The notes: a model not told the origin generated them from the letters alone. 64,000 bases of DNA from Gammaproteobacteria bacterium (GCA_965116495.1 OZ220696.1:256001-320000), one strand, 5' to 3'. Counted from the first letter of the stretch, positions 1 through 16,483 are shown. Numbers and translations are program-made.

Positions 1-530
1 CTCCAATCAACCAAGTCTTCAACTTTCAGTTTCTTTTTAGGCCAGCGAGGCATCCAGGCGGGAGGTTCTGCAGGAAAGCCGACGCCGATGCACAGGCTGG
101 GGTCCAACTCGTCCGGCAGATCCAGCAACACCCGCAGGGCTTCCGTGCTGAATGAAGTCATGGGGCCGGCGACCAGTCCGGTTGCATGCGCGGCCAGGAG
201 CATATTCTGCGAATAGTGTCCGACGTCGTAATAGACCTCTTCATAGCTCTTTACCAGGCAGTCATGGCCGGCCAGCGTCCAGTCGATGCAAATGAAGATC
301 AGTGCAGACGGTAACCCGGCAACCATTCCCGGGAAAAAGAGCTTGATTTTTTTAATCAGGTCCTTATCCGTTATACAGACAAAACGGTGAACGCGCATAT
401 TGCCGCCTGTCGGCGCCCAGCGCCCCGCTTCCAGAATAGTCCATAACATCTCATCGGGTACGGCCTTGTCCTGGTCGTAGTATTTGGCGACCCGTCTGGT
501 ACGGATCGCTTCCAGTGTGTCAAGCGTCAT
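1..530 (-). CDS. Nitroreductase family protein (3' end runs off the window)
   Basis: Not in the ORF track; translated by hand from ATG at 530: MTLDTLEAIRTRRVAKYYD...LEAGRWAPTGGN...DVGHYSQNMLLAAHATGL, the typical nitroreductase RR / APxxxN / QN-LLAA motifs. Start overlaps the end of the upstream ORF. Confidence 0.85.
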   Translation of the reverse strand, partial: MTLDTLEAIRTRRVAKYYDQDKAVPDEMLWTILEAGRWAPTGGNMRVHRFVCITDKDLIKKIKLFFPGMVAGLPSALIFICIDWTLAGHDCLVKSYEEVYYDVGHYSQNMLLAAHATGLVAGPMTSFSTEALRVLLDLPDELDPSLCIGVGFPAEPPAWMPRWPKKKLKVEDLVDW

Positions 531-858
531 TGTTGCTCTCCCCGAAGTCTCTCTCCTTTACGATTTGGGCCAGTTCAGTGATTTTTTCGCTCAAATATTG
601 TTTGAAAGCATCGAGGTCGCCGCCCTGCGTCCGGGCAGATTCGACCGGCATCCGTTTATTCAGGTCATCAAGGAATTGCGCCAGGTCTCCGGCGGATCTT
701 GGCGCCCACATGCCGGCCATCCGATCAGCGACGCTGACCATGCGCAGTACCGCATAATCCGGCGGTTCCTTGAGCAGGCCCTGGGCACTGGTCAGGATGT
801 AAGCGATTAATTCTATCGCTTCGTCTTCATTCAATGTGATGTTGTCGTCGTTATTCAT
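520..858 (-). CDS. Small helical hypothetical protein (resembles DUF6092)
   Basis: 112 aa, AGAGG SD upstream, coupled to the nitroreductase. ELIAYILTSAQGLLKEPPDYAVLR recalls DUF6092 (from memory, unverified). Confidence 0.6.
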   Translation of the reverse strand: MNNDDNITLNEDEAIELIAYILTSAQGLLKEPPDYAVLRMVSVADRMAGMWAPRSAGDLAQFLDDLNKRMPVESARTQGGDLDAFKQYLSEKITELAQIVKERDFGESNNDA

Positions 859-866
859 ATTCCTCT

Positions 867-2063
867 TTACTGTTGTGCCAGGTCTTTGCGGTCTACATAG
901 GTAAATACGCCGGCGCCGGTGATGAAAACCAATGCAGTGATAGTGAGCATGGCAGTAACACCCCAGAATTCCAGGGCAAAACCGTTGATGACAGGGCCGA
1001 TTACAGAGCCGAGAGCTTCACTCGCGGGGATCAATGCAACGAAACGGCCAACCTTATCAACTTCGGCTATCAGCGCCATAATCAGACAAAAACCGGCGTT
1101 TATCCAGAATTGGAATGAGCAGACGAGAACCAGATAGATCATATCCGATAAAGAAAGCCCATCCAGTAAAAGCAAGGTTAATACAATACATAGAATCGTA
1201 ATGCCATAGCCGTAATACATGGGAATACGTCTGCGAAACCAGGCAGCCAACGGTGCGCCTATTGCGCCAAACAGAGTACCAATCGCTAAAGCATAACCAG
1301 TTGCCGCGGGCGAGAGATCGGCATAATGGGCAATCCTTTCAAAAAATGTCCATGCCCCACCGAATCCCAGTGTGAACGTTACCATCACCAGGTGAGCCAG
1401 CAAAGGTTGGGAGATAAGGCCTTTGCCTGTCTCAACGCTCCCCAATTTGTTTTCGGTAATTCTTACGGGCGATTTTTTGTCTGAATTATTGCCGACGGGA
1501 ATGATTGGGATTAAAAATAATGATAATAGTGTCGTTCCGCACATCAGGTAAACCACGCCGGCAAAACCGGCAGATCCGCTTGCCCAGGGGAACAGTGCCA
1601 ATAATACGGCCGCGCTGCTCACGGAACAGATGATCATAGTGCTGAAGCCTTTCTCCGGCCTGGAACCGTCACCGAGTATGGTGATGGAGGGCGAAGCGAA
1701 TAAGCCGCTGCTTAAACCGTTCAGCAAATTTAACCAGATCAGTGCCGGGTAATTCTCCGTCATGCCCATCAGGGCAAATGTGAGGCCCATCAGTACAATT
1801 CCGACCGAGCAGGTAACCCGCCAGTTTACTTCCCTGATCCAGAGGTAGGCGCTGGCCCCCGAGAGTCCGAATCCGGCAAAGAATACGCTGGCAAAAATTC
1901 CCAGCCGTGATTCCGGCCATTGGAATGATTCGGCGGCGGCGCCGACTATTCCCGGCGTGACTGCCCCCGGCATAACGGCAAATGAAAACAGGAGGGCGGC
2001 AGCGAGGATAACCGGAAAACGATCCACATCAGGGTTTGCCGCCCCTGTGGTGATTGCAGTCAT
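867..2063 (-). CDS. MFS transporter
   Basis: 398 aa, about 12 hydrophobic segments, WTFFERIA motif shared with the other MFS proteins here. Confidence 0.85.
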   Translation of the reverse strand: MTAITTGAANPDVDRFPVILAAALLFSFAVMPGAVTPGIVGAAAESFQWPESRLGIFASVFFAGFGLSGASAYLWIREVNWRVTCSVGIVLMGLTFALMGMTENYPALIWLNLLNGLSSGLFASPSITILGDGSRPEKGFSTMIICSVSSAAVLLALFPWASGSAGFAGVVYLMCGTTLLSLFLIPIIPVGNNSDKKSPVRITENKLGSVETGKGLISQPLLAHLVMVTFTLGFGGAWTFFERIAHYADLSPAATGYALAIGTLFGAIGAPLAAWFRRRIPMYYGYGITILCIVLTLLLLDGLSLSDMIYLVLVCSFQFWINAGFCLIMALIAEVDKVGRFVALIPASEALGSVIGPVINGFALEFWGVTAMLTITALVFITGAGVFTYVDRKDLAQQ

Positions 2064-2779
2064 GATATGCGCCGTGAAATACCTAGCGGTTCAGGGTAAC
2101 TGACCCGGCTTGGCGATAAATCCAAATCTACAAGGGCTTCCGCAAGTTTTACGGCCGCCGAAGGACCGTCAACGACAGGGACCGGGCAGTCTTTTTCGTG
2201 GAGCCGTTCCTGTAATCGTTGTGCCAGGTGCGACGTTAATGTGCATGCAGGTATTATTACATGAGCACGATCCTCGACAATTGCAGCTATCGCAGTTTGT
2301 TCGAGAACGTCCAGTGTTGTTGCATCACTGGAGCGGATACCTTCAAGACCACAGGACAGGTAGCGAATTGAAGCAAGCATTGGTGCCAATTGGTGATGCG
2401 CCACCAGCCGTTCCATCAGCGTTATTTGCTGTAAGGGGTATAAAATTGAAAATTTGTAACCTAATGTGGCCGCCAGGTTCATGGCGGCATGCCCCGGCCC
2501 GATTACCGGTATATCTACCAGGCGCCGGCCTTCTTCCACGCCCGGGTCTTCCATACAGTCAATGATGACGGCATCCGCCATGTCCTGCTCTGCTTCCATA
2601 ATTTGTTGCAGGATTTCCGGTAACATAAAACTGTCACTGGGATCAGCCTCCGGCGGTACCCGCTTATCCAGCAGGCGCGTACTGACCTGCGTGCCGGGTC
2701 TTGCCCAGCGTGCGTAAAGGGCCTGCCTGTCGGCCAGCAAGTCAGGGTTTGAGGTGGGCAGGACGACGCCGATCTTCAC
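2060..2779 (-). CDS. Asp/Glu/hydantoin racemase family protein (paralogue 1)
   Basis: IIDCMEDPG and IPACT catalytic Cys pair, PVIG, PVVDG. Confidence 0.85.
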   Translation of the reverse strand: MKIGVVLPTSNPDLLADRQALYARWARPGTQVSTRLLDKRVPPEADPSDSFMLPEILQQIMEAEQDMADAVIIDCMEDPGVEEGRRLVDIPVIGPGHAAMNLAATLGYKFSILYPLQQITLMERLVAHHQLAPMLASIRYLSCGLEGIRSSDATTLDVLEQTAIAAIVEDRAHVIIPACTLTSHLAQRLQERLHEKDCPVPVVDGPSAAVKLAEALVDLDLSPSRVSYPEPLGISRRIS

Positions 2780-2788
2780 AGGTCAATC

Positions 2789-3514
2789 TCATGGGTGAAT
2801 TATTTTTTTCCGGGGCGGGTCGGGGTAAGTCAGTTTGCTGTGACACAGGCGCAGGTCAACCAGGCTCTCAGCCAGTTTCACCGAGGCCGCCACCGGGTCG
2901 ATGACCGGCACGTTAAAACCTTCTGCCGCCAGGTTTGATTTTATCTCCCCGACTATACCGCTCAGGCCTGTGCAATCAAATGTGATGGCTTCGGCGCGAT
3001 CTTCCGTCAATGCCAGCAAGGCTGCCTCTGTCATGGCACGGATGGATTTTTCCCGATCCTGGAATAATTCAAGCACCGGCATATTCATTACCCTTACGGA
3101 TGCAACCCGGTCCAGCACCCCATAAACACGGAACATGCGGTCCAGGTCAGGGATGTCCCGTTCCAGAATGGCCACCACGGAAAATTTTTGTGCCAGCGCA
3201 GTGGCAAGAGAGAAGGCGGCCTGGGCGACGCCAATCACCGGAATCGATGCAAGTTCCCTGGCTGCATCCAGACCTGGGTCGGATGCGCAGTTGATAATTA
3301 CCGCATCCATCCCGTCCGCCTGGGCTTTTTCCACCTGGCGCAAGGTGTCCGGCAGGGCCAGTGCTTCGTCGTATTCACTTTCTATAGATGCGGGGCCGCG
3401 TTCGATAATGACGTGGGAAAGTTTAGTATCAGGCCGGGCAACAGAGCCAAACTCACGCTCGCTTTCAGCGAGGACTTCCCTGGTGATGACCGGAGTGATG
3501 ATACGGATTTTCAT
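2789..3514 (-). CDS. Asp/Glu/hydantoin racemase family protein (paralogue 2)
   Basis: GPASIES, INCASDPG, FDCTGL, PVIDP. Confidence 0.9.
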   Translation of the reverse strand: MKIRIITPVITREVLAESEREFGSVARPDTKLSHVIIERGPASIESEYDEALALPDTLRQVEKAQADGMDAVIINCASDPGLDAARELASIPVIGVAQAAFSLATALAQKFSVVAILERDIPDLDRMFRVYGVLDRVASVRVMNMPVLELFQDREKSIRAMTEAALLALTEDRAEAITFDCTGLSGIVGEIKSNLAAEGFNVPVIDPVAASVKLAESLVDLRLCHSKLTYPDPPRKKIIHP

Positions 3515-3529
3515 GATTCAAGAGAGTGA

Positions 3530-4573
3530 TTATTTCCGTAACAGGGGCATCACTTCCTCGGCAAACAGGCGCATGCCGCCCAGCCAGCGGCCCGCCCATC
3601 CGGAAAAACCACCGGTATCCACGTCAACATCATCACAGGCCACGAAGGAACACATCATTTCATTAAACCCCTTATCGAAAACTGCTGTCTGTAATTTTTC
3701 CGCTATGGTATCAGGACGTCCGAATACCATCAGGTCGGGGTCGGCCCCTTCAGGTACGATTGCCTGTGTCGCGGTCTGGGGTTCCGTATCGATGGGAAAA
3801 CTGGTAATTTCGTGAACATTCTTTCTCGCCTTTGCCTCGTTCTCATCGTTGCGAAATACAATGTAGGCTGAACGCAAGGCAGTATAGTCTTCCTCACTAC
3901 GGCCTGCTGCCTGCCACTCTTCCTGAAACGCGTTCACTACAGTGCGCACTGTTTCTTCATGACCCCACATCATTGCCAGGGCATCACCCTGTTGCGCGGC
4001 AATTCTCGGCATTAATCTTTTACTGGTATTACAGGCAATATAAATCGGCGGGTTTGGTTTCTGTATGGGTTTGGGACTTAATATGGCATCTCTCAACTGG
4101 AAATGCTCGCCGGCGTAATTGGCAAGTTCCTCAGTCCACATGCACTTCATCACTTCGATGGTTTCTATCAGTATCTGCCGTCTCTCCTGAATAGTGTCGG
4201 GGAAGCGCTGTCCGATCATCTCATACTGGTGCCAGTCGTCCCCGGCGCCCAGTCCGACGCTGACACGGCCATTGGAAATAACGTCGATCGACGCAATGGT
4301 CTTTGACAGCAAGGGGGCGAATCGTCTTACTGCCGGGGTGGCCATGGATCCTAAGCGGATGGTTGTCGTGCTTGCTGCAATGGCTGATAGAAAACTCCAG
4401 GTGTCAAAAATCTCGATGTCTCTCGGGATGGGTGCATGGCCGGTAATGTTGTCCTGGGTCCAGATGGCTTCAAAGCCGAGTTGTTCCGCTTCCCGGGCAA
4501 CGGCCTGGTAGAAGGGAAAAGTAAAACCGCTGCCGTAACCCATGAACAGGCTGAATGTTCGCTTGTTATTCAT
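3530..4573 (-). CDS. LLM-class flavin-dependent oxidoreductase
   Basis: AEQLGFEAIWTQD, TTTIRLG, ISNGRVSVGLGAG, PKPIQKPNPPI, LFAEEVMP. Confidence 0.9.
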   Translation of the reverse strand: MNNKRTFSLFMGYGSGFTFPFYQAVAREAEQLGFEAIWTQDNITGHAPIPRDIEIFDTWSFLSAIAASTTTIRLGSMATPAVRRFAPLLSKTIASIDVISNGRVSVGLGAGDDWHQYEMIGQRFPDTIQERRQILIETIEVMKCMWTEELANYAGEHFQLRDAILSPKPIQKPNPPIYIACNTSKRLMPRIAAQQGDALAMMWGHEETVRTVVNAFQEEWQAAGRSEEDYTALRSAYIVFRNDENEAKARKNVHEITSFPIDTEPQTATQAIVPEGADPDLMVFGRPDTIAEKLQTAVFDKGFNEMMCSFVACDDVDVDTGGFSGWAGRWLGGMRLFAEEVMPLLRK

Positions 4574-4639
4574 CCGGTTTACCCAGAGACCTGCCCGATC
4601 ATTTTAATCACCACACGCAAAAATGGGGAACCTGCGTCC

Positions 4640-4664
4640 GGGGACAGATTTGAAATCTGTCCCC
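4640..4664. repeat. REP-like palindrome GGGGACAGATTT-G-AAATCTGTCCCC
   Basis: Perfect 12-bp inverted arms in the intergenic gap of a co-directional run. Confidence 0.8.
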
Positions 4665-4693
4665 TATGGCAACATAAACGCGGCCATGGCAGC

Positions 4694-5776
4694 TCATACA
4701 TCACAGAATATCCTGCCGTTTTCTGCAAATACATCATCGTCAAGCAGGATCTTTGGCTGCAGGACTGTCCAGTCCCAGTGAACGGATGATTTACTCAATG
4801 CCATATCCAATTCCATATCTCCAATGTTGCTGAGCATACTCAGGTCACCCATGCCGCAGGTGATGGAACTGTAGACTCGTTCCCATTCCTGGCTCTGGGT
4901 GAGTAGGGCATTGGGGTTATTGCCGATATTGAAATGCACCGGGCCGTTATAAGCGCCGTCATCGCCTAAGTCTTCCAGCCATTGTTCCAGGCGTGAGGCA
5001 AGCACAGGGTCACCGCCTATATTAACCAGGCGGCCTTTCTCAAAGGTAAGACGGACAGGAGTATCCGGTTTTTCGTGATAGTCAGGGTGGTACAACAGGG
5101 TTCCGTCTACATTAATGGTTCCGTTGCCAAGTCCCATGGGCACCAGTACTCCAGGCTGGGCGGGAGGCAAAAATGCCCATGGCGCTTTCCATTCTTTCTT
5201 GTCGGGGTCCCACAGAAACCCGTCTCCCGCGGCGCCGTCAAGGTCAGCTATATCCAGGGTAAACTCATCTTGTCCGGTGGATACGGTACAGAACTTTGCT
5301 TCGGTAAAGCGTTCGGCAATCCGGTCCGCGTGCCGCCTGATCGCGTGAATATCGGTATGCAGCATGGTGCGGATCAAAACATCATCCATAAACGGCCCAC
5401 CAATGCCGTCACCCGGACAGAGGATGCGTGCCCCATTATTAATGGCATCGATGATGAATGTTGCATAGCCTACTGCCATATCGATAATCAGGTCGGCTTC
5501 CAGAGCCGCCGCGGCCAGCATGGACGGCCAATGTGAGCCGGGTTGGTAGGTCGCACCGCCTCTCGGAATACGGCATTCAACCCGGATGGCCTCTGCTCCC
5601 ATTGTCTGCGCCAGCCCGTGAAACGTTGCAACGACATAATCAGGCGTGCGGGCATCGCTGATAATCAATACCTTGTGCTCCGGTTGCAGGTTACAGACGT
5701 CCCTGTATATCAGGTTTACAACTTCAATAAAATCCGGTTTGAGCCTGGATGAGTTGTCAGGTGTAATGGCTGCCAT
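4694..5776 (-). CDS. M29-fold (NicX / thermophilic aminopeptidase-like) metalloenzyme, paralogue A
   Basis: Likely start MAAITPD (ATG at 5776 with GGAGG SD), not 5890. Motifs GTINVDG, GPVHFNIG, VHWDW. Confidence 0.75.
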   Translation of the reverse strand: MAAITPDNSSRLKPDFIEVVNLIYRDVCNLQPEHKVLIISDARTPDYVVATFHGLAQTMGAEAIRVECRIPRGGATYQPGSHWPSMLAAAALEADLIIDMAVGYATFIIDAINNGARILCPGDGIGGPFMDDVLIRTMLHTDIHAIRRHADRIAERFTEAKFCTVSTGQDEFTLDIADLDGAAGDGFLWDPDKKEWKAPWAFLPPAQPGVLVPMGLGNGTINVDGTLLYHPDYHEKPDTPVRLTFEKGRLVNIGGDPVLASRLEQWLEDLGDDGAYNGPVHFNIGNNPNALLTQSQEWERVYSSITCGMGDLSMLSNIGDMELDMALSKSSVHWDWTVLQPKILLDDDVFAENGRIFCDV

Positions 5777-5796
5777 GGTATTTAAACCCTCCGTTA

Positions 5797-6579
5797 TCAG
5801 TTTATGGTAATACGGTTGCCGACGGGTGGTTCGTCCTGAAACAGTCCGAATTCCTCTATACTCTCTTCGGGTGGCGGAGCACAGCTCCATTTTCGGCTCG
5901 GCTTCCAGCCGAACCTGTTTTTGATGTCTGCCAGGTGCTCTGCCGTTTTATAAGCCGCATAAACACTATCAACGACCGGTACATCCAGTTGCTCCTGTAG
6001 CTGCCGGTAAAAACCGAATTCAAGGGTACAACCGAGAATAATGCCTTCCGCAAAGTCATGTTTAATCGCTTCACCTGCATGCTGCAACATGGCTTGTTCC
6101 GTGAGTTGTTTATTGTGCAGGAAGTCGGTCGTAGTCAGGCCCATCGCCCGTATGGATGCCAGTTGTCTGCCGTAACCGTAATGATGAATATTGTCATGCA
6201 TCTGGTTCACTTCTTTCTGACTGCCGACAATGACGGAAAACCGGTTACACAGGTTGGCCATGATTTGAATACTGGCCTGGCAAGGTCCTACTACGACCAT
6301 TTCCCCGGATATTTCCCGTGCGTCGGCAAGGATGGGATCGTAAAAACAACCCAGTACTGCTGCATCATAATGGTTGTTTGCCGCATGGCGTACCAGGCGG
6401 ATGATATCGGTATAAAACAGCGCTTCATAGGCGCGGTATTCCAGGTCAACGGGGGAAGGCGATGTATTAAGTGATACCACATCCACTTCAGCCTCTGCTG
6501 ATTTAATATCCCTTATCAGAGCTGCGATTGCCTCATCGGCATAAGGCCGCCCCAAAGGATTAACCCAGATGATTTTCAT
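5797..6579 (-). CDS. Asp/Glu/hydantoin racemase family protein (paralogue 3)
   Basis: WVNP, LGCFYDP, ILGCTLEFG, PVVD. Confidence 0.9.
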   Translation of the reverse strand: MKIIWVNPLGRPYADEAIAALIRDIKSAEAEVDVVSLNTSPSPVDLEYRAYEALFYTDIIRLVRHAANNHYDAAVLGCFYDPILADAREISGEMVVVGPCQASIQIMANLCNRFSVIVGSQKEVNQMHDNIHHYGYGRQLASIRAMGLTTTDFLHNKQLTEQAMLQHAGEAIKHDFAEGIILGCTLEFGFYRQLQEQLDVPVVDSVYAAYKTAEHLADIKNRFGWKPSRKWSCAPPPEESIEEFGLFQDEPPVGNRITIN

Positions 6580-6768
6580 ATCGGTTTATTGGCGGAGTGG
6601 ACAAGGATACGGGAACAAGCATAACTGATGCTTTAACTGTAATCTATCAGATTGTTGAAAAGTAAAATTCGTGATTTTCACATGTACACGGAAAATGGGT
6701 TCACTTAAGGTATTCTGAAGGTAATCCAGAACAAAAATAACGGGTTTATTCCTGATACTATAGACAGC

Positions 6769-7854
6769 ATGGCTGAAACAACAGATGTCAGTACCGGATT
6801 AAAACCGGAATTTGTCGCGGTGGTCGATAAAATCTACCGTGATTTATGTAACCTGCAACCTGGAACCAGGGTATTGATCATCGCTGATTCCCGTACGCCT
6901 GAACATGTTGTTTCACTGTTTATGGGCATGGGCATGGCAATGGGCGCCGAGGTATCGGTATCGCGGAACAAGATGCCGCCACCGCCGTCATTGCAACCGG
7001 GATATGTGTGGAATCCCATGGTAGTAGCGGCCGCGCGTGAAGCGGACCTGATCGTCGACCTGGCTGTAGGCTATGCAGAGTTCATGGCGGAAGCGGTTGA
7101 GCGGGGCGCCCGGATTATTTCGCCGGGTGACGGTACCGGTGGGCATCATCTTGAAGATACCCTGATCCGGACCATGTTGAACGTGGACATACACGCCCTG
7201 CGTAAGGAAGCCCAGGAAATTGCTGAAATGTTTACTCAGGCAAACAGTTTGCGGATGACTTCGGAGGAGGGTACGGATTTCGAGTTGGATATTCAGGGAC
7301 TGGAAGGAATTTCATCAGATGAGTTCCTTTGGGACCCAGACCTGAAAAAATGGACGGGCACCTGGGCGTCGTTGCCGCCGGCAGCGCCGGGTATTGTTAT
7401 CCCCAAGGGCAGGGGCAACGGCGTGCTGGCCGTTGACGGTTTCCTGCTCTATGAACCGGCTTATGATCATGAAACGCCGAATTCGCCGATACTGCTGACT
7501 TTTGAACAGGGCAGGATCATGGATATCCAGGGGGCAGCCTTATTCCGGGATCGACTCAAGAACTGGCTGGATGCGCAACCGGACGACTCGCCGCGTTACG
7601 GACCTGTACACCTGAACCTGGGTACAAACTCAAGGGCTATGCTGACGCAACACCAGGAATTTGAAAAACTGCGCGGCACCGTTTGTTGCGGGATCGGTGA
7701 CAGCAGCCTGCTCACGCGTATGTGGCATGGTTCCGACCTTGAACCCGTCGTATCCCATATCCACTGGGACATATTGCTTATGCGACCCACGGTTATGCTG
7801 GATGAGCAGACTATCTGTGAAAAAGGCGTTATTCCTGCCGATTTAATAGTCTGA
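6769..7854 (+). CDS. M29-fold (NicX-like) metalloenzyme, paralogue B
   Basis: Clear paralogue of 4694-5776 (IYRDLCNLQP, ADLIVDLAVGYA, DEFLWDPD). Motifs GPVHLNLG, HWDI. Confidence 0.75.
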   Translation: MAETTDVSTGLKPEFVAVVDKIYRDLCNLQPGTRVLIIADSRTPEHVVSLFMGMGMAMGAEVSVSRNKMPPPPSLQPGYVWNPMVVAAAREADLIVDLAVGYAEFMAEAVERGARIISPGDGTGGHHLEDTLIRTMLNVDIHALRKEAQEIAEMFTQANSLRMTSEEGTDFELDIQGLEGISSDEFLWDPDLKKWTGTWASLPPAAPGIVIPKGRGNGVLAVDGFLLYEPAYDHETPNSPILLTFEQGRIMDIQGAALFRDRLKNWLDAQPDDSPRYGPVHLNLGTNSRAMLTQHQEFEKLRGTVCCGIGDSSLLTRMWHGSDLEPVVSHIHWDILLMRPTVMLDEQTICEKGVIPADLIV

Positions 7855-9057
7855 CTGGTTTCCTGCCTGGGCAGGAAAAGGTTGAGCACGTTCTTTATTG
7901 ATAGTTGAAAACACCAGAATAAGGATGGCGCTGATGATGAAACCAATAATCGTCATGAGGATGGATGAATCGAATTTACCATCCTCCAGGAAAAGTGAAA
8001 CCAGTGCCGGTCCGGAAGAAAAACCTAGCCACATGATCAGGTTCCCCCATAATACGCCGCGGCCTGACGGCGTCATTCGGCCCAGCAGGATAAAGTAATA
8101 CGGCGTGAGAAAGGTGATGGAGAAGTTGAACATCGCCGTGGCACAAAAAAAGACGGTTAATGATGCCGAGTGAAACAGGAAGAATGTACTTATCGTTATC
8201 AAAACCGTACCGGCCAGGATCGGCTTAATCTCGCCCAAACGGCCGCCGATCGCTGCCGCACAAAATACCCCTGCCAAAGCCACTAGTTGGCTAGCGCCCA
8301 CTACCGGGCCTACGGTTTTGGCGGCGTGGCCGTAAGAAACGCCAAGCCGTTCAAAGTAGGCCCAGATACCGGCATTGGCAGCGTAGTTTATGAACAATGC
8401 CAGCAAGAGAACACCAAGACCGAGCCATGGAACCTGGTTATCGGTTAGAGGTTTACTGTTTTCTTCACCTACAGGTAATGGGTGAGGGTCTTCCGGGTAA
8501 TACAACAGCAGGAAGGGTACGGCAGCAATACAGATCAGGATAATCGTGTAATAGGCGCCGGAGACGCCGTAATACGGGTAAATCAGGGGTAGAAAGGACA
8601 ACCCCAGGGCGCTCATGAAATAAGGTGAGCCGTATAGTATGGCGGTGGTTCGTTCCACGTCCCGGACCCTGGTGACGGCTATAGCCGCGGTACACCAGGT
8701 AATGCCGGCGACAAAACCGGATATGAAGCGGCAGGCGGAAAATATTGCCAGGCTGCCAAAAGCAAAGATGGTCATGAGGTTACACAGAACGAGTATGCAT
8801 AAACAGAACAGTGCAATCCGTTTAAGATTTAATCCCGGGCGGTGCAGGTACAAAGTGGATGCTACAGTGCCCAGTGATGTTGCCCAGAATTCCAGTGATG
8901 CCAGCCTGCCCGCGGTTTCCAGGGAGAATTCCAGGTAGTCGACCAGGGCGCCGATAATTGAAGGAGCGAATGGCGTAAACGCATTGCCGGCAGTACCGAC
9001 CATGAGGATACTGAAGGCGACTATAAGCCTGTGCTTAAGGTCAGTACTGTCTCTCAT
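7843..9057 (-). CDS. MFS transporter
   Basis: 404 aa hydrophobic, RFISG, IWAYFERLG. Confidence 0.85.
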   Translation of the reverse strand: MRDSTDLKHRLIVAFSILMVGTAGNAFTPFAPSIIGALVDYLEFSLETAGRLASLEFWATSLGTVASTLYLHRPGLNLKRIALFCLCILVLCNLMTIFAFGSLAIFSACRFISGFVAGITWCTAAIAVTRVRDVERTTAILYGSPYFMSALGLSFLPLIYPYYGVSGAYYTIILICIAAVPFLLLYYPEDPHPLPVGEENSKPLTDNQVPWLGLGVLLLALFINYAANAGIWAYFERLGVSYGHAAKTVGPVVGASQLVALAGVFCAAAIGGRLGEIKPILAGTVLITISTFFLFHSASLTVFFCATAMFNFSITFLTPYYFILLGRMTPSGRGVLWGNLIMWLGFSSGPALVSLFLEDGKFDSSILMTIIGFIISAILILVFSTINKERAQPFPAQAGNQSDY

Positions 9058-9096
9058 CGGTCCGGTTCATATCCATAATGCATAAAGGAACGGAAG

Positions 9097-10206
9097 TCAT
9101 TCCGTCCTTACGCTTTCCAGTCTTTGTTCTACAGGTATGTACTCCACGTCAATGCCAAAGCACCCTGGACCGATAACTTTCAGGGCCTGTTCGGTACGCA
9201 GGATTTCCGGAGCAAGAATACCCATAATGGTGACGCGTTGTCCGTAACGCAGCGTTTCCTGGGTGATTGGCTGCACCGTGTCATTGTCCAGCATACAGAT
9301 CAGGTCGGGCACCGTGGCCAGCATATGGGTTCCCAGTCTCGCGGTCAGGAATTCATTCTGAATGTCCATGGTCATTGTCTCTCCATCATCACCGAACTCC
9401 TGCAGGGTGACAATTCCGACGTCATAGCCGCCTTTTACCTGGCGATCAACATCGATTACCTTGCCCTCAAACAAGACATTCGCTTTACCGTAATGGGCGG
9501 CCTGCAAAATTGCATCCAGTTCCTGCCTGAAATTTCTCATGTTGCCATGGTTTTCCCGCAGACAACGACCCAGGCGTAAACTCAGGCTGATCGTATCCGG
9601 GACAGAGACCTGTTTTACCGTACTACCGTCTATAATGTGTTCCGCGCTGTAACAGGTTCCTCCTCCACCCAGGATGGTGAACTGCCGGATCAGTTTTTCA
9701 GCCGTTGCCGCGTCAGTCATGTTCATGATGGCACTGTTGCCTTCATTACCCACCAGTGTAAGAGGTGTCGCGGAGACGCCGTAGATACTGAATGTCTCCA
9801 TTTGCATTTCGGGAAAGGCGCGACCCATGCCATCCGCATCCAGTACCGGTATCTTCAGTTGCGAAGCAGTCATTACCGGGATCAGTGAATTAAAACCGCC
9901 TGCTTCAAATGCGATCAATGCATCTGCTTTGCGGCCGACGTATTCCTCGAGCAAACGTAGCGCGGCTATCACTTCCGTTCCATTTGATACCTTTTCATTC
10001 ATGATGGAAGGGGCGCCGACCCCTCCCACGGCGATGACCATCGCATTATCGCTTATTGCATGGAGTGGAATTAAATCCACATCCCCGTGTTCACGTAATA
10101 CCCGTTCCGTCACCATGCGGCCGACCATGACATCACCTCCACCCCCACAGGCGAGAAAGGCGCCGCCCAGTGCAATATCAGCAACGTCATTCCAGGTGAT
10201 TTTCAT
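9097..10206 (-). CDS. DUF917 family protein (thiohydantoin desulfurase-like)
   Basis: GGAFLACGGGG, FEAGGFNS, DADGMGRAFPE, QNE, VPDLI, LRYGQRV. Confidence 0.9.
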   Translation of the reverse strand: MKITWNDVADIALGGAFLACGGGGDVMVGRMVTERVLREHGDVDLIPLHAISDNAMVIAVGGVGAPSIMNEKVSNGTEVIAALRLLEEYVGRKADALIAFEAGGFNSLIPVMTASQLKIPVLDADGMGRAFPEMQMETFSIYGVSATPLTLVGNEGNSAIMNMTDAATAEKLIRQFTILGGGGTCYSAEHIIDGSTVKQVSVPDTISLSLRLGRCLRENHGNMRNFRQELDAILQAAHYGKANVLFEGKVIDVDRQVKGGYDVGIVTLQEFGDDGETMTMDIQNEFLTARLGTHMLATVPDLICMLDNDTVQPITQETLRYGQRVTIMGILAPEILRTEQALKVIGPGCFGIDVEYIPVEQRLESVRTE

Positions 10207-11744
10207 ATTTTCATCTCGCCCACGGCCTTTACCCGTAACCTGACAATGGGATCTTCGAGATAGCTGATGGGTATTTCATCCACTTCAGTGATCTCAATGG
10301 TTGCTTCCTCCGCGCCGGCCGCTATTGTCCGTTCAATAGCTTGTCTGCGAACTTCATCGTGGGCTGAACTGCGTCCCTGGTCACCCCGGGAATATACTAT
10401 CTCGGCTTCAGCGCCAATTTTGCCTATGGCGGCGCCGACCGCGTTGGCTACATCTGCATACTCAGGCCGGACCACTTCCGTTATTCCGGGAAGATCGTCA
10501 GGGATAAGAAAACTGCCGCCCCCCACGGCGATCAACGGGAGAGGATCCGGGCTGGTCTTCATCCGGTCAACTACGCTCGTATACATCTCGAACATGGTAG
10601 CCATGGCCGTATCTATCACGGTTGTGTCAATGTCTGTCAACAGGTCTGCCCGGCCAATGCCGATTTGTCCGGCGGCGCAGGCAATATCCGTGGCAGTCAG
10701 TATCTCACCGGCAAAGCATTTCGCTTTTTTTGTCAACTCGTGGCCTACAGACAACGGCCCCAGTTTGTTCCCCTGTTGTTCGACGCGACTCCCCCCGCCC
10801 AGGCCGATAGCCAGGACATCCGGCATGCGAAAATTGGTCAATACACCGCCTATTTCCACCTCGATACCGGAGCGGCGGGGGAAGCCGTTCATCAGCATGC
10901 CTACATCACTGGTAGTTCCCCCTACGTCTATGACCATGGCATCTGCAAGTCCGGTAAGGTGTGCAGCACCTCGCATGGAATTGGTCGGACCGGAAGAAAT
11001 CGTGAGTACCGGATAGCGCGTGGCAAAGTCCGCTTCCATCAAGGTGCCGTCGTTCTGGCTGATAAACAGTTTTGCAGACAGCCCCAGTTCACCGAAAGCT
11101 GAGCGAAATGCCTGTATGGTGCTTGCTGCCAGCGGCATCAATGCCGCGTTGAGCAAGGTGGCATTTTCTCTTTGATAAATACCTATGCCACCCAGTTCAC
11201 TGGAAAGGGAAACGTAATGCGTCAACTGTCTTTTTGTGGCCTGTTGCCCTATCCAGAGTTCGGTTTCCGGGTTGACGGACGAGAACATGCCGCATACGGA
11301 CAATGAATCCGGTCCGGTCCGGACTATTTCTTCACAGGCCGTGTTGAATGCGTCCTCATCGAAAGTGGTAATTGGCTTACCGTCGAATTCATGACCGCCA
11401 TTTATCATGGCGGCGTGTCCCTTGACTGCCTCTTCCAGGTCGGGCGGCCAATCATAAAACGGAGGCAGGGCCGAGGTTGACTGCGCGCCTACCCGCAGCG
11501 CTGCCACCCTGGCCAGGCCGCGGCGTTGTACAACGGCATTGGTAAATTGCGTTGTGCCAATCATGACGGCTGCAATAGAAGAACCCGGTACCCGGGCATC
11601 AGAAAGAACTGTCTTTGCAGCCGCGACAATACCACTTGCTATATCAGTGCTGGTCGATGCTTTAAATGTAGCGATAATATCCTTGCCATCCATGATAACC
11701 GCGTCGGTATGGGTGCTGCCGACGTCAATTCCTATTCGCCGCAT
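10203..11744 (-). CDS. Hydantoinase/oxoprolinase family protein (HyuA-like)
   Basis: True start likely MRRIGIDVGSTHTD (11744); the track's upstream extension reads into a MITE. Motifs SGPTNSMRGA, DVGGTTSD, GLGGGS, ANAVGAA. Confidence 0.9.
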   Translation of the reverse strand: MRRIGIDVGSTHTDAVIMDGKDIIATFKASTSTDIASGIVAAAKTVLSDARVPGSSIAAVMIGTTQFTNAVVQRRGLARVAALRVGAQSTSALPPFYDWPPDLEEAVKGHAAMINGGHEFDGKPITTFDEDAFNTACEEIVRTGPDSLSVCGMFSSVNPETELWIGQQATKRQLTHYVSLSSELGGIGIYQRENATLLNAALMPLAASTIQAFRSAFGELGLSAKLFISQNDGTLMEADFATRYPVLTISSGPTNSMRGAAHLTGLADAMVIDVGGTTSDVGMLMNGFPRRSGIEVEIGGVLTNFRMPDVLAIGLGGGSRVEQQGNKLGPLSVGHELTKKAKCFAGEILTATDIACAAGQIGIGRADLLTDIDTTVIDTAMATMFEMYTSVVDRMKTSPDPLPLIAVGGGSFLIPDDLPGITEVVRPEYADVANAVGAAIGKIGAEAEIVYSRGDQGRSSAHDEVRRQAIERTIAAGAEEATIEITEVDEIPISYLEDPIVRLRVKAVGEMKI

Positions 11745-11756
11745 CGGATAATGGTA

Positions 11757-12013
11757 CTCTTTCAACTTAATATTGACATGTTCAGCGGGTCGGGAAGCGG
11801 TTGAGCGCCAGGCACGCCGCGCAGGTAATGGCGCGCCCTTGCCAAGCGGCGTAACGCCGCGGGCGACCGCTTCCCGGCCCGCCCGCAGGGAGCCACACAG
11901 CGGCGCCAATACGGCGTTGCAGCCCTTGACAAGGGCGCGCCATTCTCTGCGGGCTGCGCCTTGTCTTGACGCCGCTGTGTGGCTCTGAACATGTCAATAT
12001 TAAGTTGAAAGAG
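11757..12013. mobile_element. MITE-like non-autonomous element with 29-bp perfect terminal inverted repeats
   Basis: CTCTTTCAACTTAATATTGACATGTTCAG (11757-11785) and its exact reverse complement (11985-12013). Interior has a further imperfect inverted pair and no transposase. Confidence 0.85.
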
Positions 12014-12042
12014 CACTAGTCCTGTCAAGCAATGGTCGCCGG

Positions 12043-13269
12043 TTAGTTCGGGCGTTTGTAGAACTTGCCCGATTTCATGATGTGGGTAATCGTGGCATCC
12101 GGTTGTTGCAGGATCGAAATGTTGCGCAACGGATTACCGTCCACGATTAATATATCAGCCAAGGCGCCGGGTTTAATACAACCCAGCCTGGCATCCATAT
12201 TCAGCAGTTCAGCATTGATTTTCGTCGCAGACCGTAATATTTCAAACGGTGACAGTACCTCGGCGCGAATCTCAAATTCACGGGACTGCATATCATGTAA
12301 AGGGCCGAACAAGTCTGTCCCAAACCCGGTACTGGTTCCTGCTTCTTTTAAATTTTCCAGGCTTTTAAGCCCCGCCTGGTGAACCACCGAGACTTTTTTC
12401 GAACTGTATTCAGGCAAGCCTATTTCTTTCCCGCGGTCTATCATCGCCTGGTAGGTTACCAGGGTAGGATTAACGAAGGCGTTGGATCGTGTGGCAAGTA
12501 ACGCTGTTTCCAATTCAATGAAATTGGCGTGTTCTATGGAACGAACACCGCATTCCAGCGACCTGCGGATTGCTTCATCGCTGTATGCGTGAGCGAGGAC
12601 GTAAGTTCCACGGTGTTCAGCTTCTTCAACGGCAGCGCGTATTTCATCTTCTGAATATTGCAGGCCCAGGAGAGGGTCGCTTGGGGAGGTAACCCCGCCG
12701 GAAGCCATGATTTTAATTGCATGGGCGCCTTTGCGTAATTCCTCCCGAGCCGCTTTTCTTACCGCCGACACACCATCGGCTACAATGGTCATGCCGGCCC
12801 CGCTACATGAGCAGGCAACAGCATTATTGCCCGGCTCCCTGAAGTCGCCGTGCCCGCCGGTTTGGCTGAGACCGCGACCGCAATGAAACAACCTTGGGCC
12901 GATAATCAAATCTTCCTCCACCGCTCTTGACAGCCCGCTATCGGCGCCGGCGGCATCACGGATGGAAGTAAAACCCCGAAACAACATTTCCCGCATCAGT
13001 CTCGCAGCTTTCAACGCTACCCATGACGGCGGCAGTTCCTGAAGCCGGGCAGGGGAGACGTCGTGGTCGGTTACGTGGACGTGGGCGTCGATCAATCCCG
13101 GCATAAGCGTCTTGCCTTTTACATCGACTATTTCTGCCGAAGCAGACCGGAGCGGCCGATCCGACACCTCACGGATGTCCGTTCCTTCAACAAGGACATG
13201 ATAACCCTGCTTGACTTCGTCCACTTCTCCGTCAAACAGGTTTGCGTTGGTAAACAGTGTTGGGACCAT
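12043..13269 (-). CDS. Metal-dependent amidohydrolase (Xaa-Pro dipeptidase / ochratoxinase-like subgroup)
   Basis: PGLIDAHVH, TGGHGD, IKIMASGG, LAHA, SIEHA, FGTD. Confidence 0.9.
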   Translation of the reverse strand: MVPTLFTNANLFDGEVDEVKQGYHVLVEGTDIREVSDRPLRSASAEIVDVKGKTLMPGLIDAHVHVTDHDVSPARLQELPPSWVALKAARLMREMLFRGFTSIRDAAGADSGLSRAVEEDLIIGPRLFHCGRGLSQTGGHGDFREPGNNAVACSCSGAGMTIVADGVSAVRKAAREELRKGAHAIKIMASGGVTSPSDPLLGLQYSEDEIRAAVEEAEHRGTYVLAHAYSDEAIRRSLECGVRSIEHANFIELETALLATRSNAFVNPTLVTYQAMIDRGKEIGLPEYSSKKVSVVHQAGLKSLENLKEAGTSTGFGTDLFGPLHDMQSREFEIRAEVLSPFEILRSATKINAELLNMDARLGCIKPGALADILIVDGNPLRNISILQQPDATITHIMKSGKFYKRPN

Positions 13270-13368
13270 TTGTTATTTACATCCGGATGCAATAATATAA
13301 TTATACAACGATTGGCCAGTATCTTATTTATCCTTTTGTCCATCAAGGTAGTTAGGGGGGATTAAACA

Positions 13369-15762
13369 ATGAAAACGTTCATTCGCAAACCGCTTGTTAT
13401 TGCTGTAGGTCTTGCAATACAGTCGATTTCTGTCCAGGCGCAGGAGGAAGCTTCGGGTGCGGTTCTGGAAGAGATACTCGTCACCGCCAATCGCCGGTCA
13501 GAATCAGCACTGGATGTTCCCTATAACGTCACTGCATTATCCGCCGACCAGCTTGAAGCAGCGGGCGTCAGTGACATTTCCGGGATGCTTCGCATGGTGC
13601 CGGGTCTCAGTTCATTCGATGAAGGACCACGGGTGTCGGGTAATCGGAACAATTTTAATATTCGCGGATTAAATGCCAACAACCTCGGCAATGAGGACGA
13701 TAACCCCCGTATCGGTCAGGCAACGGTTTCAACCTACGTGGGCGAGACGCCGGTATTTTTTCCATTAAAACTCGTTGATCTCGATCGAGTAGAGGTATTA
13801 CGAGGACCGCAGGGCACACTCTATGGCTCAGGTTCGGTTGGTGGCACGGTCAGATTTATTCCTAATAAACCGGAGTTTGACGGGTTCACGCTGGATGTGA
13901 ATGCAGAAGCTTCCCTGACCAAGAAATCCGACGATGTCGGCTACGAGGGAAATTTCACCGTCAACGTACCGCTCAGCGAAGCATTCGCAGTGCGGGCTAC
14001 CGCCGGTTATGAAGAGATTCCCGGTTTCATCGATGCGCTCGGCCTGGTACAGCAGACGGGTACGCCGGAAGATCCTGGAGCAGTGGTGCTGGCTGACCCC
14101 GGAGATATTCTCGGCAGCCTGCCTGCATATGGTCCCGAAAAGGAAGACGTCAACGATGCAGAAGTTACTTTTGCCCGTGTCAGTCTGCGTTTCCTTCCCA
14201 GCGATCGGTTGGATGTGAATGTGAATTACCATTATCAACAGACCAAAGTAGGCAGTCGCTACGAAGATAACCCGGAATATGGAACCGGTGAAGAGTACGT
14301 TATGTACAAGGCATTTACCGACCCGCATGATGCATCCATACAACTGGGTAATATTGATATGGAGTTCGACCTCGGATTTGCCAGGTTGACGTCGGCGTCT
14401 GCGTATTCCGAGATTAATATAGACAGCGTTTCTGAATCATCCGGATTTCTGAGAACCAATATTCCGCAGTATTACTTCGGTCTGCCCCGTATTATTTCGC
14501 CGATTATCCGCGGTCAAAACTCGCAGACATTTACCCAGGAAATCCGCTTGGTATCAGAGGCTGGAGGAAGGTTTGAATGGGTAGCAGGCGGGTTTTACCT
14601 GGAGAACGACCTGGATTTCGACTTGTTTCAACCCCTGTTTGGCGTAAATGATTACGCCAATGCGTATTTTGGTTTGAATCCCCCTTTGAATTTTACCGAC
14701 ACATTGGCAACGGGTGGCACCGAACAGGAATTCAGGGATATGGCCGTGTTTGGCGAATTGACCGTGAATATCACCGATCGCTGGCAGGTCACCGGTGGAA
14801 TCCGTATCTTCGATCAGGAACTGGATGGAACTTCGGGCATCCCGCTGCCGTTTGCATCCCGGACATTTGAATTTTTCTATTACGGTAGTGCAACGGATGA
14901 TTTTCTGCTCGGTGGTATCAACCCGACGGAAAACGAGGTGTCGGATGAAATATTCAAGGTGAATACCTCTTACGAAGTGACTGATGACATGTTGGCCTTT
15001 TTTACCTGGTCCCAGGGCTTTCGGGCTGGCGGCGCCAACCAGTTGCCAGAGATAGATCCGTTTGGTAACGACTATTCCGATATTCTCCGGTTTCAATCAG
15101 ATGATGCGGAGAACTACGAAATCGGAATCAAGGGTACCTGGAACGCGCAGGTCAATTACACGGCCACGGCATTCTGGGTGGACTGGACGAATTTTCAATC
15201 AACCCTGTTTTCACCATTCGGCATCGCCTTTGTGGACAACATAGGCGGCGCTCGGTCCCGCGGCCTGGAACTGGAATTGAATGGCTACCTGACCGACCAA
15301 CTTGGATTCGGGCTCAGCTATACCTATATAGATGCAGAGACCACCGATCCGTTCGAGCAGCAGTCAGGCAATCCTGCGACCACGGTTCCGGATGGTACGA
15401 CATTGCCGGGTTCATCGGAGAGCACGTTTTTCGGCCATCTCCAGTACGAATATCCCCTGGCGACATCAAAACTCGTCTTTTATACGGATTTGGCTTACCG
15501 CAGTGACACCAACAGCGCCTTTATCGATCAACCGTTGCTTGCATCTGAAAATTTTGTACCGCTGGATGGTTTCGCGGTCTGGAATCTTTCCGTTACCTGG
15601 GCCAGGGATAATTACAGTATTACCGCATTCGGGGAAAATGTTTCAAACACCCGTGCAACCTCGGTTGTGTCATCACCGGATTCCTTTGGTGAGCAGGATC
15701 AGGGATATGGAGTGATCAAACCCCAGACCTTCGGATTACGCTTCAAATGGTCTTATCAGTGA
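13369..15762 (+). CDS. TonB-dependent receptor
   Basis: Signal peptide, LEEILVTA TonB-box region, RVEVLRGPQGTLYG plug motif, aromatic C-terminal strand. Confidence 0.95.
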   Translation: MKTFIRKPLVIAVGLAIQSISVQAQEEASGAVLEEILVTANRRSESALDVPYNVTALSADQLEAAGVSDISGMLRMVPGLSSFDEGPRVSGNRNNFNIRGLNANNLGNEDDNPRIGQATVSTYVGETPVFFPLKLVDLDRVEVLRGPQGTLYGSGSVGGTVRFIPNKPEFDGFTLDVNAEASLTKKSDDVGYEGNFTVNVPLSEAFAVRATAGYEEIPGFIDALGLVQQTGTPEDPGAVVLADPGDILGSLPAYGPEKEDVNDAEVTFARVSLRFLPSDRLDVNVNYHYQQTKVGSRYEDNPEYGTGEEYVMYKAFTDPHDASIQLGNIDMEFDLGFARLTSASAYSEINIDSVSESSGFLRTNIPQYYFGLPRIISPIIRGQNSQTFTQEIRLVSEAGGRFEWVAGGFYLENDLDFDLFQPLFGVNDYANAYFGLNPPLNFTDTLATGGTEQEFRDMAVFGELTVNITDRWQVTGGIRIFDQELDGTSGIPLPFASRTFEFFYYGSATDDFLLGGINPTENEVSDEIFKVNTSYEVTDDMLAFFTWSQGFRAGGANQLPEIDPFGNDYSDILRFQSDDAENYEIGIKGTWNAQVNYTATAFWVDWTNFQSTLFSPFGIAFVDNIGGARSRGLELELNGYLTDQLGFGLSYTYIDAETTDPFEQQSGNPATTVPDGTTLPGSSESTFFGHLQYEYPLATSKLVFYTDLAYRSDTNSAFIDQPLLASENFVPLDGFAVWNLSVTWARDNYSITAFGENVSNTRATSVVSSPDSFGEQDQGYGVIKPQTFGLRFKWSYQ

Positions 15763-15811
15763 TGAGGGTTATATATCTCTGAACAAAAAACAACCAATCC
15801 GCGTTTGCGCA

Positions 15812-16483
15812 ATGATTGCCATACGCGCCGGATTGGAGTCATGGGGCGCGGTAACCCGGGAGCTTGTTGATGAAATTATAGCTCCCGATGTTGAAGTAAC
15901 CATTCGGGATCTGCCTGACGCCCCTGTCACTTCTATCATGAGCGCCTGTGATCATGACCTTGTCGCGCCGTATAATGTCCAGGCTGCAATTCAGGCAGAA
16001 CAGGAGGGTTTCGATGCCATTACCACGGGTTGTTTGCTTGACCCCGGCATTGAAGCCATGAAAGAAGCCGTGGACAGGCTCGTTGTCGTGGGGGATTGTG
16101 AAGCCGTAATGCATCTGGGCTCTCTGTTGGGACGCCGAATCTGCGTTTTACTTCCGAACAAAACAACCTCCGGTTTGATTACATTCAACGTATTTGAAGA
16201 TCTGGTGCGTAAATACGGATTCCAGGACAAGCTGGCCTCCATACGCGCTGTTCAATCCACCAGCCTGGATTTTGCAGCCGAACGGGACGACCTGCCGGGG
16301 AAAATGCTGGAACAGGCGCGACTTGCAATCAGGGAAGACAGGGCGGACGTGATCGTAGGTTACGGCAGTTTGACGGTTATTAATCATTTGCGTGCGCACC
16401 TCGCCGTGCCCGTCCTCGAATCAATACAATGTACATTATCCCTGGCGACTGAACTGGTTCGACATCGCGATTGGCAGGAATAA
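15812..16483 (+). CDS. Asp/Glu/hydantoin racemase family protein (paralogue 4, second Cys apparently absent)
   Basis: TGCLLDPG present; ADVIVGYGSL where the paralogues have xCT. Confidence 0.8.
   Translation: MIAIRAGLESWGAVTRELVDEIIAPDVEVTIRDLPDAPVTSIMSACDHDLVAPYNVQAAIQAEQEGFDAITTGCLLDPGIEAMKEAVDRLVVVGDCEAVMHLGSLLGRRICVLLPNKTTSGLITFNVFEDLVRKYGFQDKLASIRAVQSTSLDFAAERDDLPGKMLEQARLAIREDRADVIVGYGSLTVINHLRAHLAVPVLESIQCTLSLATELVRHRDWQE

Follow-up and report, generated by a model that had tools for sequence, protein, structure and literature searches.

In a window of 64,000 nucleotides of DNA from a gammaproteobacterium (GCA_965116495.1 OZ220696.1:256001-320000, equivalent to G000:C1:256001-320000, in which G000 denotes the source genome), positions 1-19820 hold a cassette of 18 uptake and enzyme genes, which we propose, at a probability of roughly 45%, to take up cyclic dipeptides (2,5-diketopiperazines, some of them probably with proline) and to catabolise them to amino acids. 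Unprefixed coordinates below are window positions. The proposal is built by analogy: the nearest characterised relatives of a cyclodipeptide oxidase (CDO)-like flavoprotein and of a prolidase-like amidohydrolase act on cyclic dipeptides or their linear products, the racemase family represented in the cassette includes the diketopiperazine isomerase NozR, a receptor and importers are present, and no cyclodipeptide synthase (CDPS) accompanies them. The gene identities, the residues at key positions, the co-conservation of the genes, and the failure to find a CDPS are directly established. A first-pass annotation of this DNA had listed four racemases, two M29-fold proteins, a DUF917 protein, a hydantoinase, an amidohydrolase, a luciferase-like monooxygenase (LLM) family protein, a nitroreductase, two major facilitator superfamily (MFS) transporters, and a TonB receptor, all of which are intact open reading frames where it placed them. 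It had, however, closed the cassette at 16483; three further genes that travel with it, encoding a TPR-sulfotransferase, a 329-aa protein, and a 2-oxoglutarate (2OG) oxygenase, extend it to 19820.

The supposed nitroreductase is present as a gene, but its product is the A subunit of a CDO-like pair of the AlbA/AlbB type, whose overlapping partner gene had been overlooked. Subunit A (179 aa, AlbA-like nitroreductase fold; 1-530, minus strand, with its last 10 bases before the window start) has as its two top Protein Data Bank (PDB) matches NdasCDO-A (9exv_A, E 6e-19) and AlbA (8uc3_A, E 2e-17). Subunit B (112 aa, DUF6092/PF19585; 520-858, minus strand, overlapping subunit A by 11 nt) scores 53 bits against a PF19585 cut-off of 28.7 and matches the AlbB chains of 8uc3 and 9exv. 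Its residues E31, P32, Y35, R39, and M70, equivalent to AlbB E33, P34, Y37, R41, and M78, are invariant in 23 of 23 aligned relatives, so that the E-P-x-x-Y-x-x-x-R motif and the Met of AlbAB and NdasCDO are kept, and the AlbB G79 equivalent is Pro. In subunit A, R12, N44, and S126 correspond to retained AlbA R24, N55, and S139, whereas Lys16 replaces R28, Gly43 replaces S54, and Asp102 replaces C115, the residue that binds FMN covalently. The pair also differs from AlbAB and NdasCDO in having the B gene upstream of A and in lacking a synthase: a CDPS search of G000 and of five further genomes with cassette parts gave none, and its B. subtilis control was positive. A biosynthetic, CDPS-linked CDO was therefore ruled out on the basis of the Asp102/Gly43 replacements and the absence of a CDPS from the cluster. 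A plasmid collection gave no match to either subunit.

These features place the cassette in a published but unsolved class of clusters. In the accessible text of the CDO paper (Andreas & Giessen, Nat Commun 2024, PMC11055893), 88% of 274 CDO clusters are described as devoid of both a CDPS and the covalent-FMN Cys, with their function unexplained, and these clusters are enriched in hydantoin racemases, DUF917, AroM, transporters, and peptidases. The cassette shares with them the overlapping A/B genes, the missing Cys, the lack of a CDPS, and hydantoin racemase, DUF917, peptidase, and transporter neighbours. A near orthologue pair, A0A3C0BYQ7/A0A3C0C0X2 from a Gammaproteobacteria bacterium, stands in the table of 274 in that paper, its closeness being judged by eye. 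Compared to the clusters as described there, the cassette lacks AroM, ABC, and OPT genes and adds two NicX-fold enzymes, an F420-type LLM, a TonB receptor, MFS importers, a one-cysteine racemase, a TPR-sulfotransferase, and a 2OG oxygenase. It is thus a distinct conserved variant, marked by the NicX-like pair, the prolidase-like enzyme, the F420-type LLM, the one-cysteine racemase, and TonB uptake. The main text of PMC11055893 contains neither 'NicX' nor 'luciferase', and its readable supplements contain none of 'luciferase', 'aminopeptidase', 'TonB', and 'racemase'; its supplementary figure of CDO neighbourhoods may already show a similar cluster. The earlier description of the gene set as undescribed thus fails for the combination of CDO, hydantoin racemase, and DUF917; no paper describing the full set was found in a literature search that mostly left subscription journals outside.

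The cassette was confirmed as a real co-conserved unit, the gene order of which is shuffled in distant bacteria: its orthologues, about 45-85% identical, are again grouped in a different family and on metagenome contigs with GC contents of 39-70%. Subunit B occurs in 7 of 23 genomes of the genus, counting G000, and in none of 38 outside it, and the NicX-like pair occurs in 8 of the 23. Five of the six other genus members mapped have the same order next to the nuo operon, one of these without Rac3 and Rac4 (in G008 the contig ends before nuo could appear), and the sixth, G004, carries it at a different chromosomal site without the CDO pair, Rac3, and Rac4. The cassette of G007 is fragmented. 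In the Azotimanducaceae genome G061 (Ca. Azophilus), one block at 57-82% identity contains the receptor, Rac4, the sulfotransferase, the 329-aa protein, NicX-like a, the LLM, MFS1, and the CDO; the amidohydrolase, NicX-like b, and the 2OG oxygenase lie about 40 kb from it, and hydantoinase-A/DUF917 pairs are found elsewhere. Subunit B is absent from all 120 relatives of G061 examined. Two Acidobacteriota genomes hold, of the cassette, only NicX-like b (74%) with MFS genes. One holder of related DNA is labelled as a sponge metagenome.

A metagenome scan seeded on subunit B yielded 14 loci, many of them short, with GC contents of 39-70%. All 14 contain subunit A and an MFS1 orthologue adjoining the CDO pair, and a racemase is found in eight, a NicX-like gene in seven, DUF917 in three, and hydantoinase-A in none. 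Among the seven loci longer than 7 kb, six have a NicX-like gene, five the amidohydrolase, and five a LysR gene, although these seven are apparently closely related and thus do not represent seven independent events. A LysR gene also stands between the amidohydrolase and the TonB receptor in three of the six same-genus cassettes. The earlier remark that there is no regulator is thus true of the window, where none was found, but not of many relatives. The TPR-sulfotransferase, the 329-aa protein, and the 2OG oxygenase likewise travel with the cassette in relatives. Taken together, the rarity of DUF6092 and of the NicX-like clade and their joint recurrence in distant loci exceed chance, and the rare, patchy distribution suggests that the cassette has spread horizontally. 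This co-conservation upholds the first-pass idea of an uptake-and-degradation cassette for cyclic amides or N-heterocycles that matches no characterised pathway, an interpretation that is, overall, partly supported; the refuting condition attached to it, a lack of joint conservation in other genomes, did not come true.

Two near-identical metagenome loci (L041, 10940-18306, and L042) carry a complete hut operon inside the cassette, between subunit A and LysR/EthD-like genes. The hut genes were not read as a clue to the substrate because they are 49-72% identical to the ordinary hut operon of G000 (hutU, hutH, imidazolonepropionase-like) and occur in only these 2 of the 14 loci. A CBU_0592-family membrane protein and an EthD-like small protein also accompany the cassette in relatives (L004, 16278-16556; L043, 2138-2419 and 14084-14407) and were not found in G000.

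The amidohydrolase (12043-13269, minus strand) has the metal-site motifs and is matched over its full length by its top PDB relatives, Sgx9260b (3mkv, E 2e-123) and Sgx9260c (3feq/3n2c, E 7e-118), which, as summarised in the accessible part of a review, hydrolyse Xaa-Pro dipeptides and N-acyl-prolines. Its likeness to these prolidases is known from overall sequence and the metal motifs; it reaches 242 bits against a cut-off of 500 for the Xaa-Pro model NF051886 and 27-33 bits for hydantoinase-type models, all below their cut-offs. Its gene shares a run with those of MFS2 and NicX-like b in four of the seven long metagenome loci, and in L007 it neighbours NicX-like b. Divergent from it is the TonB-dependent receptor gene (13369-15762, plus strand), and the receptor together with the importer-type layout would suit catabolism.

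The four racemase-family proteins (PF01177) share 27-33% mutual identity. Rac1 (2060-2779, minus strand; C75 and C179), Rac2 (2789-3514, minus strand; C76 and C181), and Rac3 (5797-6579, minus strand; C78 and C184) are hydantoin-racemase-like and keep both catalytic-position cysteines in all aligned orthologues, and the best PDB matches of Rac2 are 3qvj, a putative hydantoin racemase (E 5e-34), followed by the allantoin racemase 5lfd. Rac4 (15812-16483, plus strand) has the racemase fold and the single catalytic-position cysteine C74, with Tyr184 at the second position. As a cysteine is missing there in 9 of 9 aligned orthologues, Rac4 is likely not a plain racemase. A tree of 41 different sequences resolves the four as separate well-supported groups, with long-branch warnings for the joins between groups; the Rac1, Rac2, and Rac4 groups contain orthologues from distant loci, and Rac3, absent from two of the six genus cassettes, was met in the genus alone. 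The four-member set therefore appears to consist of old, distinct subfamilies rather than of recent duplicates. According to the accessible text of its report, NozR, a two-cysteine Asp/Glu-racemase homologue, is a proven D/L isomerase of diketopiperazines.

The two NicX/M29-fold metalloenzymes, a (360 aa; 4694-5776, minus strand; relatives carry PF26233) and b (361 aa; 6769-7854, plus strand), are 48% identical to each other, compared with 69-86% among orthologues. Their split accordingly appears to predate the divergence of the lineages, which, like the racemase tree, contradicts the heavy paralogue expansion claimed at first. A single-sequence PDB search gave no match, and the single-sequence fold of b reached a predicted local distance difference test (pLDDT) score of only 42, so an alignment-based model (pLDDT 93.6) was used. 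With Foldseek this model matches NicX (7cn3) at E 2e-21, a template modelling (TM) score of 0.69-0.73, and 19% identity, and a 107-sequence profile of the clade matches NicX at E 1e-56 and M29 aminopeptidases at E 1e-10 to 1e-12. M29 aminopeptidases (PepS, AmpS, AmpT) and CgnB/CgnE share the fold at TM 0.46-0.65, and the NicX-like pair keeps one Glu, one His, and one Asp of their motif region. The complete M29 two-metal site, which we take to be Glu/Glu/Glu/His/His/Asp, is not intact because the pair lacks the first motif Glu and one His and has His in the position of another Glu; an M29 aminopeptidase was ruled out by this incomplete site, seen in a profile alignment to PepS, and by the lack of a match to PF02073.

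Conservation over 122 clade members (b numbering) shows H281 and E297 invariant, E299 kept in 121, and H332 and D334 in 120. On the residue roles given in the accessible text of the NicX structure paper, and with a manual mapping of columns by way of the profile, the clade retains three of the four iron ligands of NicX (the H265, H318, and D320 equivalents). The fourth, Ser302, is Gly in 120 of 122, and of the NicX substrate residues His105 is Tyr in 122 of 122, Glu177 is Ser or Gly, and His189 is Ser or Phe; a conserved Glu takes the place of Arg293. NicX proper, the 2,5-dihydroxypyridine dioxygenase, was ruled out by the loss of the Ser302 ligand and of the His105/Glu177/His189 substrate triad. 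The residue comparison thus makes the clade neither NicX proper nor an intact aminopeptidase, and it is predicted to have a distinct His/Glu/His/Asp metal site. Among the 120 relatives listed, identities are 54-96%, with named sources in Woeseia, Sphingomonas, Halieaceae, and Betaproteobacteria, and the clade is absent from 399 other class-level genomes (0/399). The plasmid collection gave three distant matches, one of them beside an amino-acid permease and proC, which is uninformative. In L008 (10001-11107), an orthologue of b has Gly for the conserved Asp334 ligand and may be inactive or reflect a sequence error.

The hydantoinase-A/oxoprolinase-like subunit (513 aa; 10203-11744, minus strand) overlaps the gene of the DUF917 (S-Me-THD-like) protein (9097-10206, minus strand) by 4 nt. 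Members of the hydantoinase-A family bind ATP and activate lactams in an ATP-dependent manner, and D-hydantoinases belong to a different family. No hydantoinase-B (PF02538) is found in the cassette, where DUF917 stands in its place, and a two-subunit hydantoinase/oxoprolinase was rejected for want of this B subunit. Among 20 long homologues, 15, with bacterial, fungal, algal, and scallop sources, join hydantoinase-A and DUF917 in this order in one fused protein, which supports the view that the two work as one functional unit. The scallop, algal, and fungal fusions (P0305, P0308, P0312) are uncharacterised in listings, and no characterised hydantoinase-A/DUF917 enzyme was found in the literature, subscription journals being mostly outside the search. 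A second locus of G000 (L056, G000:C1:1329860-1338495) groups hydantoinase-A, DUF917, a TonB receptor, a racemase, and a large regulator-like gene; it has neither CDO nor NicX-like genes.

The LLM-family oxidoreductase (3530-4573, minus strand) is nearer F420-type reductases than FMN monooxygenases; its best models are F420-dependent types, and it scores 151 bits against a cut-off of 231 for TIGR03560. A second LLM, in L041, passes TIGR03620. The genome has F420 biosynthesis genes, CofE and a fused CofH-type gene being over cut-off, together with a CofD-family match, which alone is not diagnostic since 11 of 14 controls were also positive. These genes lie at G000:C1:3757603-3759416 and 4223372-4225609, and the gammaproteobacterium that carries them has 15 LLM genes or more.

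The catabolic direction, the substrate class, and every reaction are what we infer from these likenesses. In the proposed scheme, the TonB receptor and the two MFS proteins would import the compounds, under LysR control in relatives. Two-cysteine racemases would equalise D and L centres, and the CDO-like flavoprotein and the F420-type LLM would interconvert saturated and dehydro rings, such that varied substrates would converge on a cleavable form. The ring would then be opened by hydantoinase-A/DUF917, by ATP-driven lactam hydrolysis in analogy with the family, and/or by the NicX-fold metalloenzymes, after which the Xaa-Pro or N-acyl-amino-acid so formed would be split by the prolidase-like amidohydrolase. 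A second CDO locus in G008, unrelated to the first, also groups a CDO with a racemase, a member of the same amidohydrolase family as in the cassette (49%), hydantoinase A/B, and a TonB receptor, which counts for the scheme. This distant locus (L029, G008:C184, 1602-12625; also L016, G007:C694), the A subunit of which is 27% identical to that of the cassette, includes GntR and MFS genes as well. Also in favour stands the statement, in the accessible text of a 2013 paper, that bacterial degradation of diketopiperazines is stereoselective, the enzymes being left unidentified there.

Several points weigh against cyclic dipeptides as the substrate. Since subunit A has neither the covalent Cys nor the candidate catalytic Ser of AlbA, its chemistry may differ from that of known CDOs. 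The racemases are far nearer hydantoin/allantoin racemases (E 5e-34) than the epimerase OpaE (E 7e-8), the DUF917 activities named in Pfam and NCBIfam labels are thiohydantoin desulfurases only, and the authors of PMC11055893 prefer hydantoin/allantoin-like substrates for the CDPS-less class. Moreover, the 2013 paper reports that two recombinant D-hydantoinases cleaved none of nine diketopiperazines. Neither proposed step, CDO or hydantoinase-A/DUF917, is constant: the metagenome loci have, in place of the pair, at most a distant DUF917 (27-28%), in G004 most of the cassette is retained but the CDO pair is missing, and G062 and G063 keep only NicX-like b and MFS genes. The sulfotransferase, the 2OG oxygenase, and the 329-aa protein are unexplained by the scheme.

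In the next most probable reading, which we regard as unlikely, though deserving of serious weight, five-membered cyclic ureides (5-substituted hydantoins, thiohydantoins, and allantoin- or creatinine-like alkaloid cores) are degraded. The racemases would act at C5, DUF917 with or without hydantoinase-A would desulfurate or open the ring, the CDO-like pair and the LLM would work on ylidene double bonds, and the amidohydrolase would remove N-carbamoyl or N-acyl groups. The best matches of the racemases are hydantoin/allantoin racemases, the best models of DUF917 are thiohydantoin desulfurases, and this substrate class is the one proposed in PMC11055893, the reference list of which includes sponge hydantoin alkaloids, to be set beside the sponge metagenome label noted above. 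However, the cassette has no allantoinase, carbamoylase, or D-hydantoinase above cut-off, and its amidohydrolase resembles prolidases rather than hydantoinases (242 versus 27-33 bits, all below cut-off). The ergothioneine lead of the first-pass annotation was also lost. DUF917 belongs to the same family as the thiohydantoin desulfurases of ergothioneine catabolism but falls far below the cut-offs of the desulfurase equivalogs NF058529 (136 against 450 bits) and NF058532 (114 against 440 bits) and is paired with hydantoinase-A; the only urocanase-family and aromatic-lyase-family genes of the genome both lie in the ordinary hut operon, leaving none to spare for this route.

Three other explanations appear improbable. 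In a nicotinate/trigonelline-like route for N-heteroaromatics, the ring would be hydroxylated or opened by the LLM, and the NicX-like pair would use Fe(II)/O2 to cleave a dihydroxy-azine; the amidohydrolase would then act as a deformylase and a racemase-fold protein would isomerise a maleamate-like product. NicX is the nearest solved structure of the pair, with the shared fold and His/His/Asp ligands, and, by motif reading, a Rieske-type gene adjoins the G004 cassette. Against this stand the low identity to NicX (~19%), the changes at Ser302, His105, Glu177, His189, and Arg293, the failure to find a nic-type deformylase or maleate isomerase in the cassette, an LLM nearer F420-type reductases, and a flavoprotein that is a CDO A subunit and not a free flavin reductase. 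The four racemase proteins were unmatched by the maleate isomerase/AMDase family (PF17645) in a Pfam scan, and a genome search was likewise empty, although its positive control gave no match. The nicotinate analogy of the first-pass annotation thus does not extend to membership of that pathway. The homarine pathway was rejected as well, since the accessible text of the homarine paper is without racemase, hydantoin, amidohydrolase, or luciferase terms.

Similarly low odds go to two or three modules that act independently on different compounds and have a receptor region in common, namely CDO-MFS1-Rac1-NicXa, amidohydrolase-MFS2-NicXb, and hydantoinase-A/DUF917. The modules of G061 are spread over three sites with as much as about 250 kb between them, G062 and G063 have a single module, and the G000 genome is rich in the families concerned, with 19 hydantoinase-A, 17 amidohydrolase, and 15 LLM matches besides 97 TonB-receptor matches. 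Yet L043 and L045 (39-41% GC) carry this orthologue set intermixed and in another order, and in G004 the set is kept in one place despite a different chromosomal site. We consider equally speculative a complete oxidative route that would destroy cyclic dipeptides, in which the synthase-less CDO filament would remove two hydrogens, Rac4 would move the double bond into the ring and so yield a hydroxypyrazinone (aza-analogue of the NicX substrate 5-hydroxy-2-pyridone), the NicX-fold pair would cleave the ring at a 2-His/Glu/Asp iron site, and the prolidase-like enzyme would release the pieces.

Least credible is the tailoring and export of a secondary metabolite (dehydrogenation, epimerisation, hydroxylation, sulfation) on a ring built elsewhere, which would employ the 2OG oxygenase and the sulfotransferase, both of families that serve as tailoring enzymes. 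CDOs and NozR are also tailoring enzymes in the accessible text of their reports, but no CDPS was found in six genomes, the cassette has no synthetase gene, and the TonB receptor and two hydrolase systems point inward.

The G000 genome is a single contig of 4.34 Mb with 99.5% completeness; the cassette has a GC content of 0.52 against 0.55 for the genome and holds four of its seven racemase-family genes, two of its three NicX-like genes, and its sole DUF6092 gene. Read from strand and spacing, the genes form three apparent units: a leftward unit from Rac3 through NicX-like a, the LLM, Rac2, Rac1, MFS1 (867-2063, minus strand), and subunit B to subunit A; a second leftward unit of amidohydrolase, hydantoinase-A, DUF917, and MFS2 (7843-9057, minus strand), on which NicX-like b converges; and a rightward unit of the TonB receptor, Rac4, the TPR-sulfotransferase family protein (16483-18078, plus strand), the 329-aa protein (18105-19094, plus strand), and the putative 2OG-Fe(II) oxygenase (PF13759; 19098-19820, plus strand), which ends at 19820 as the last gene before nuo. 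A promoter scan stayed at chance level (20 found, 19.8 expected), and two RNA runs gave short low-depth contigs in 19 of 30 and 21 of 30 bins, which, with no silent control stretch, are not evidence of transcription. The 329-aa protein belongs to no known family, an Atlas search giving none and only unnamed clusters as neighbours; it occurs in two copies in some loci and has two paralogues elsewhere in the genome (G000:C1:495682-496518 and about 521100).

Between the amidohydrolase and hydantoinase genes lies a palindromic insertion of ~270 bp (11748-12027, no strand assigned) that resembles a miniature inverted-repeat transposable element, being GC-rich with long terminal inverted repeats and a folding z of -15. 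The genome has 15 full-length copies including this one (89-100% identity), the site is empty in relatives and in a contig of run X18, and both RNA and DNA runs show high depth over it. The opposite strand of the element spuriously lengthens the hydantoinase reading frame at the N-terminus (start 11909). The element is a passenger outside the pathway. On the side away from nuo, the cassette is flanked by an island (L002, G000:C1:236001-256000) with type I restriction-modification, Sir2-like, HerA-like, DUF1016-like, and IS630-like transposase genes, as read from translations, the content of which varies among relatives. Elsewhere, G000:C1:1189000-1204000 groups two LLMs, two MFS genes, a TonB receptor (35% identical to that of the cassette), and two TPR-sulfotransferases, which suggests a recurring uptake module.

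Cyclic dipeptides are abundant and stable, and the genes for their microbial breakdown were left unidentified in the 2013 paper, as far as its accessible text goes. If the substrate were an ordinary hydantoin, the cassette would be another of the many orphan catabolic clusters that fill its genome; if the complete oxidative route were true, it would give a first function at once to non-CDPS CDOs and to the wide NicX-like clade. The cassette also points to this widespread clade as one with a predicted distinct metal site. Being compact and conserved, it is a candidate through which both the genes of cyclic-dipeptide breakdown and the function of CDPS-less CDOs become testable: it brings a specific receptor and, in relatives, a LysR sensor, and it includes enzymes most closely related to characterised ones that act on cyclic dipeptides or Xaa-Pro.

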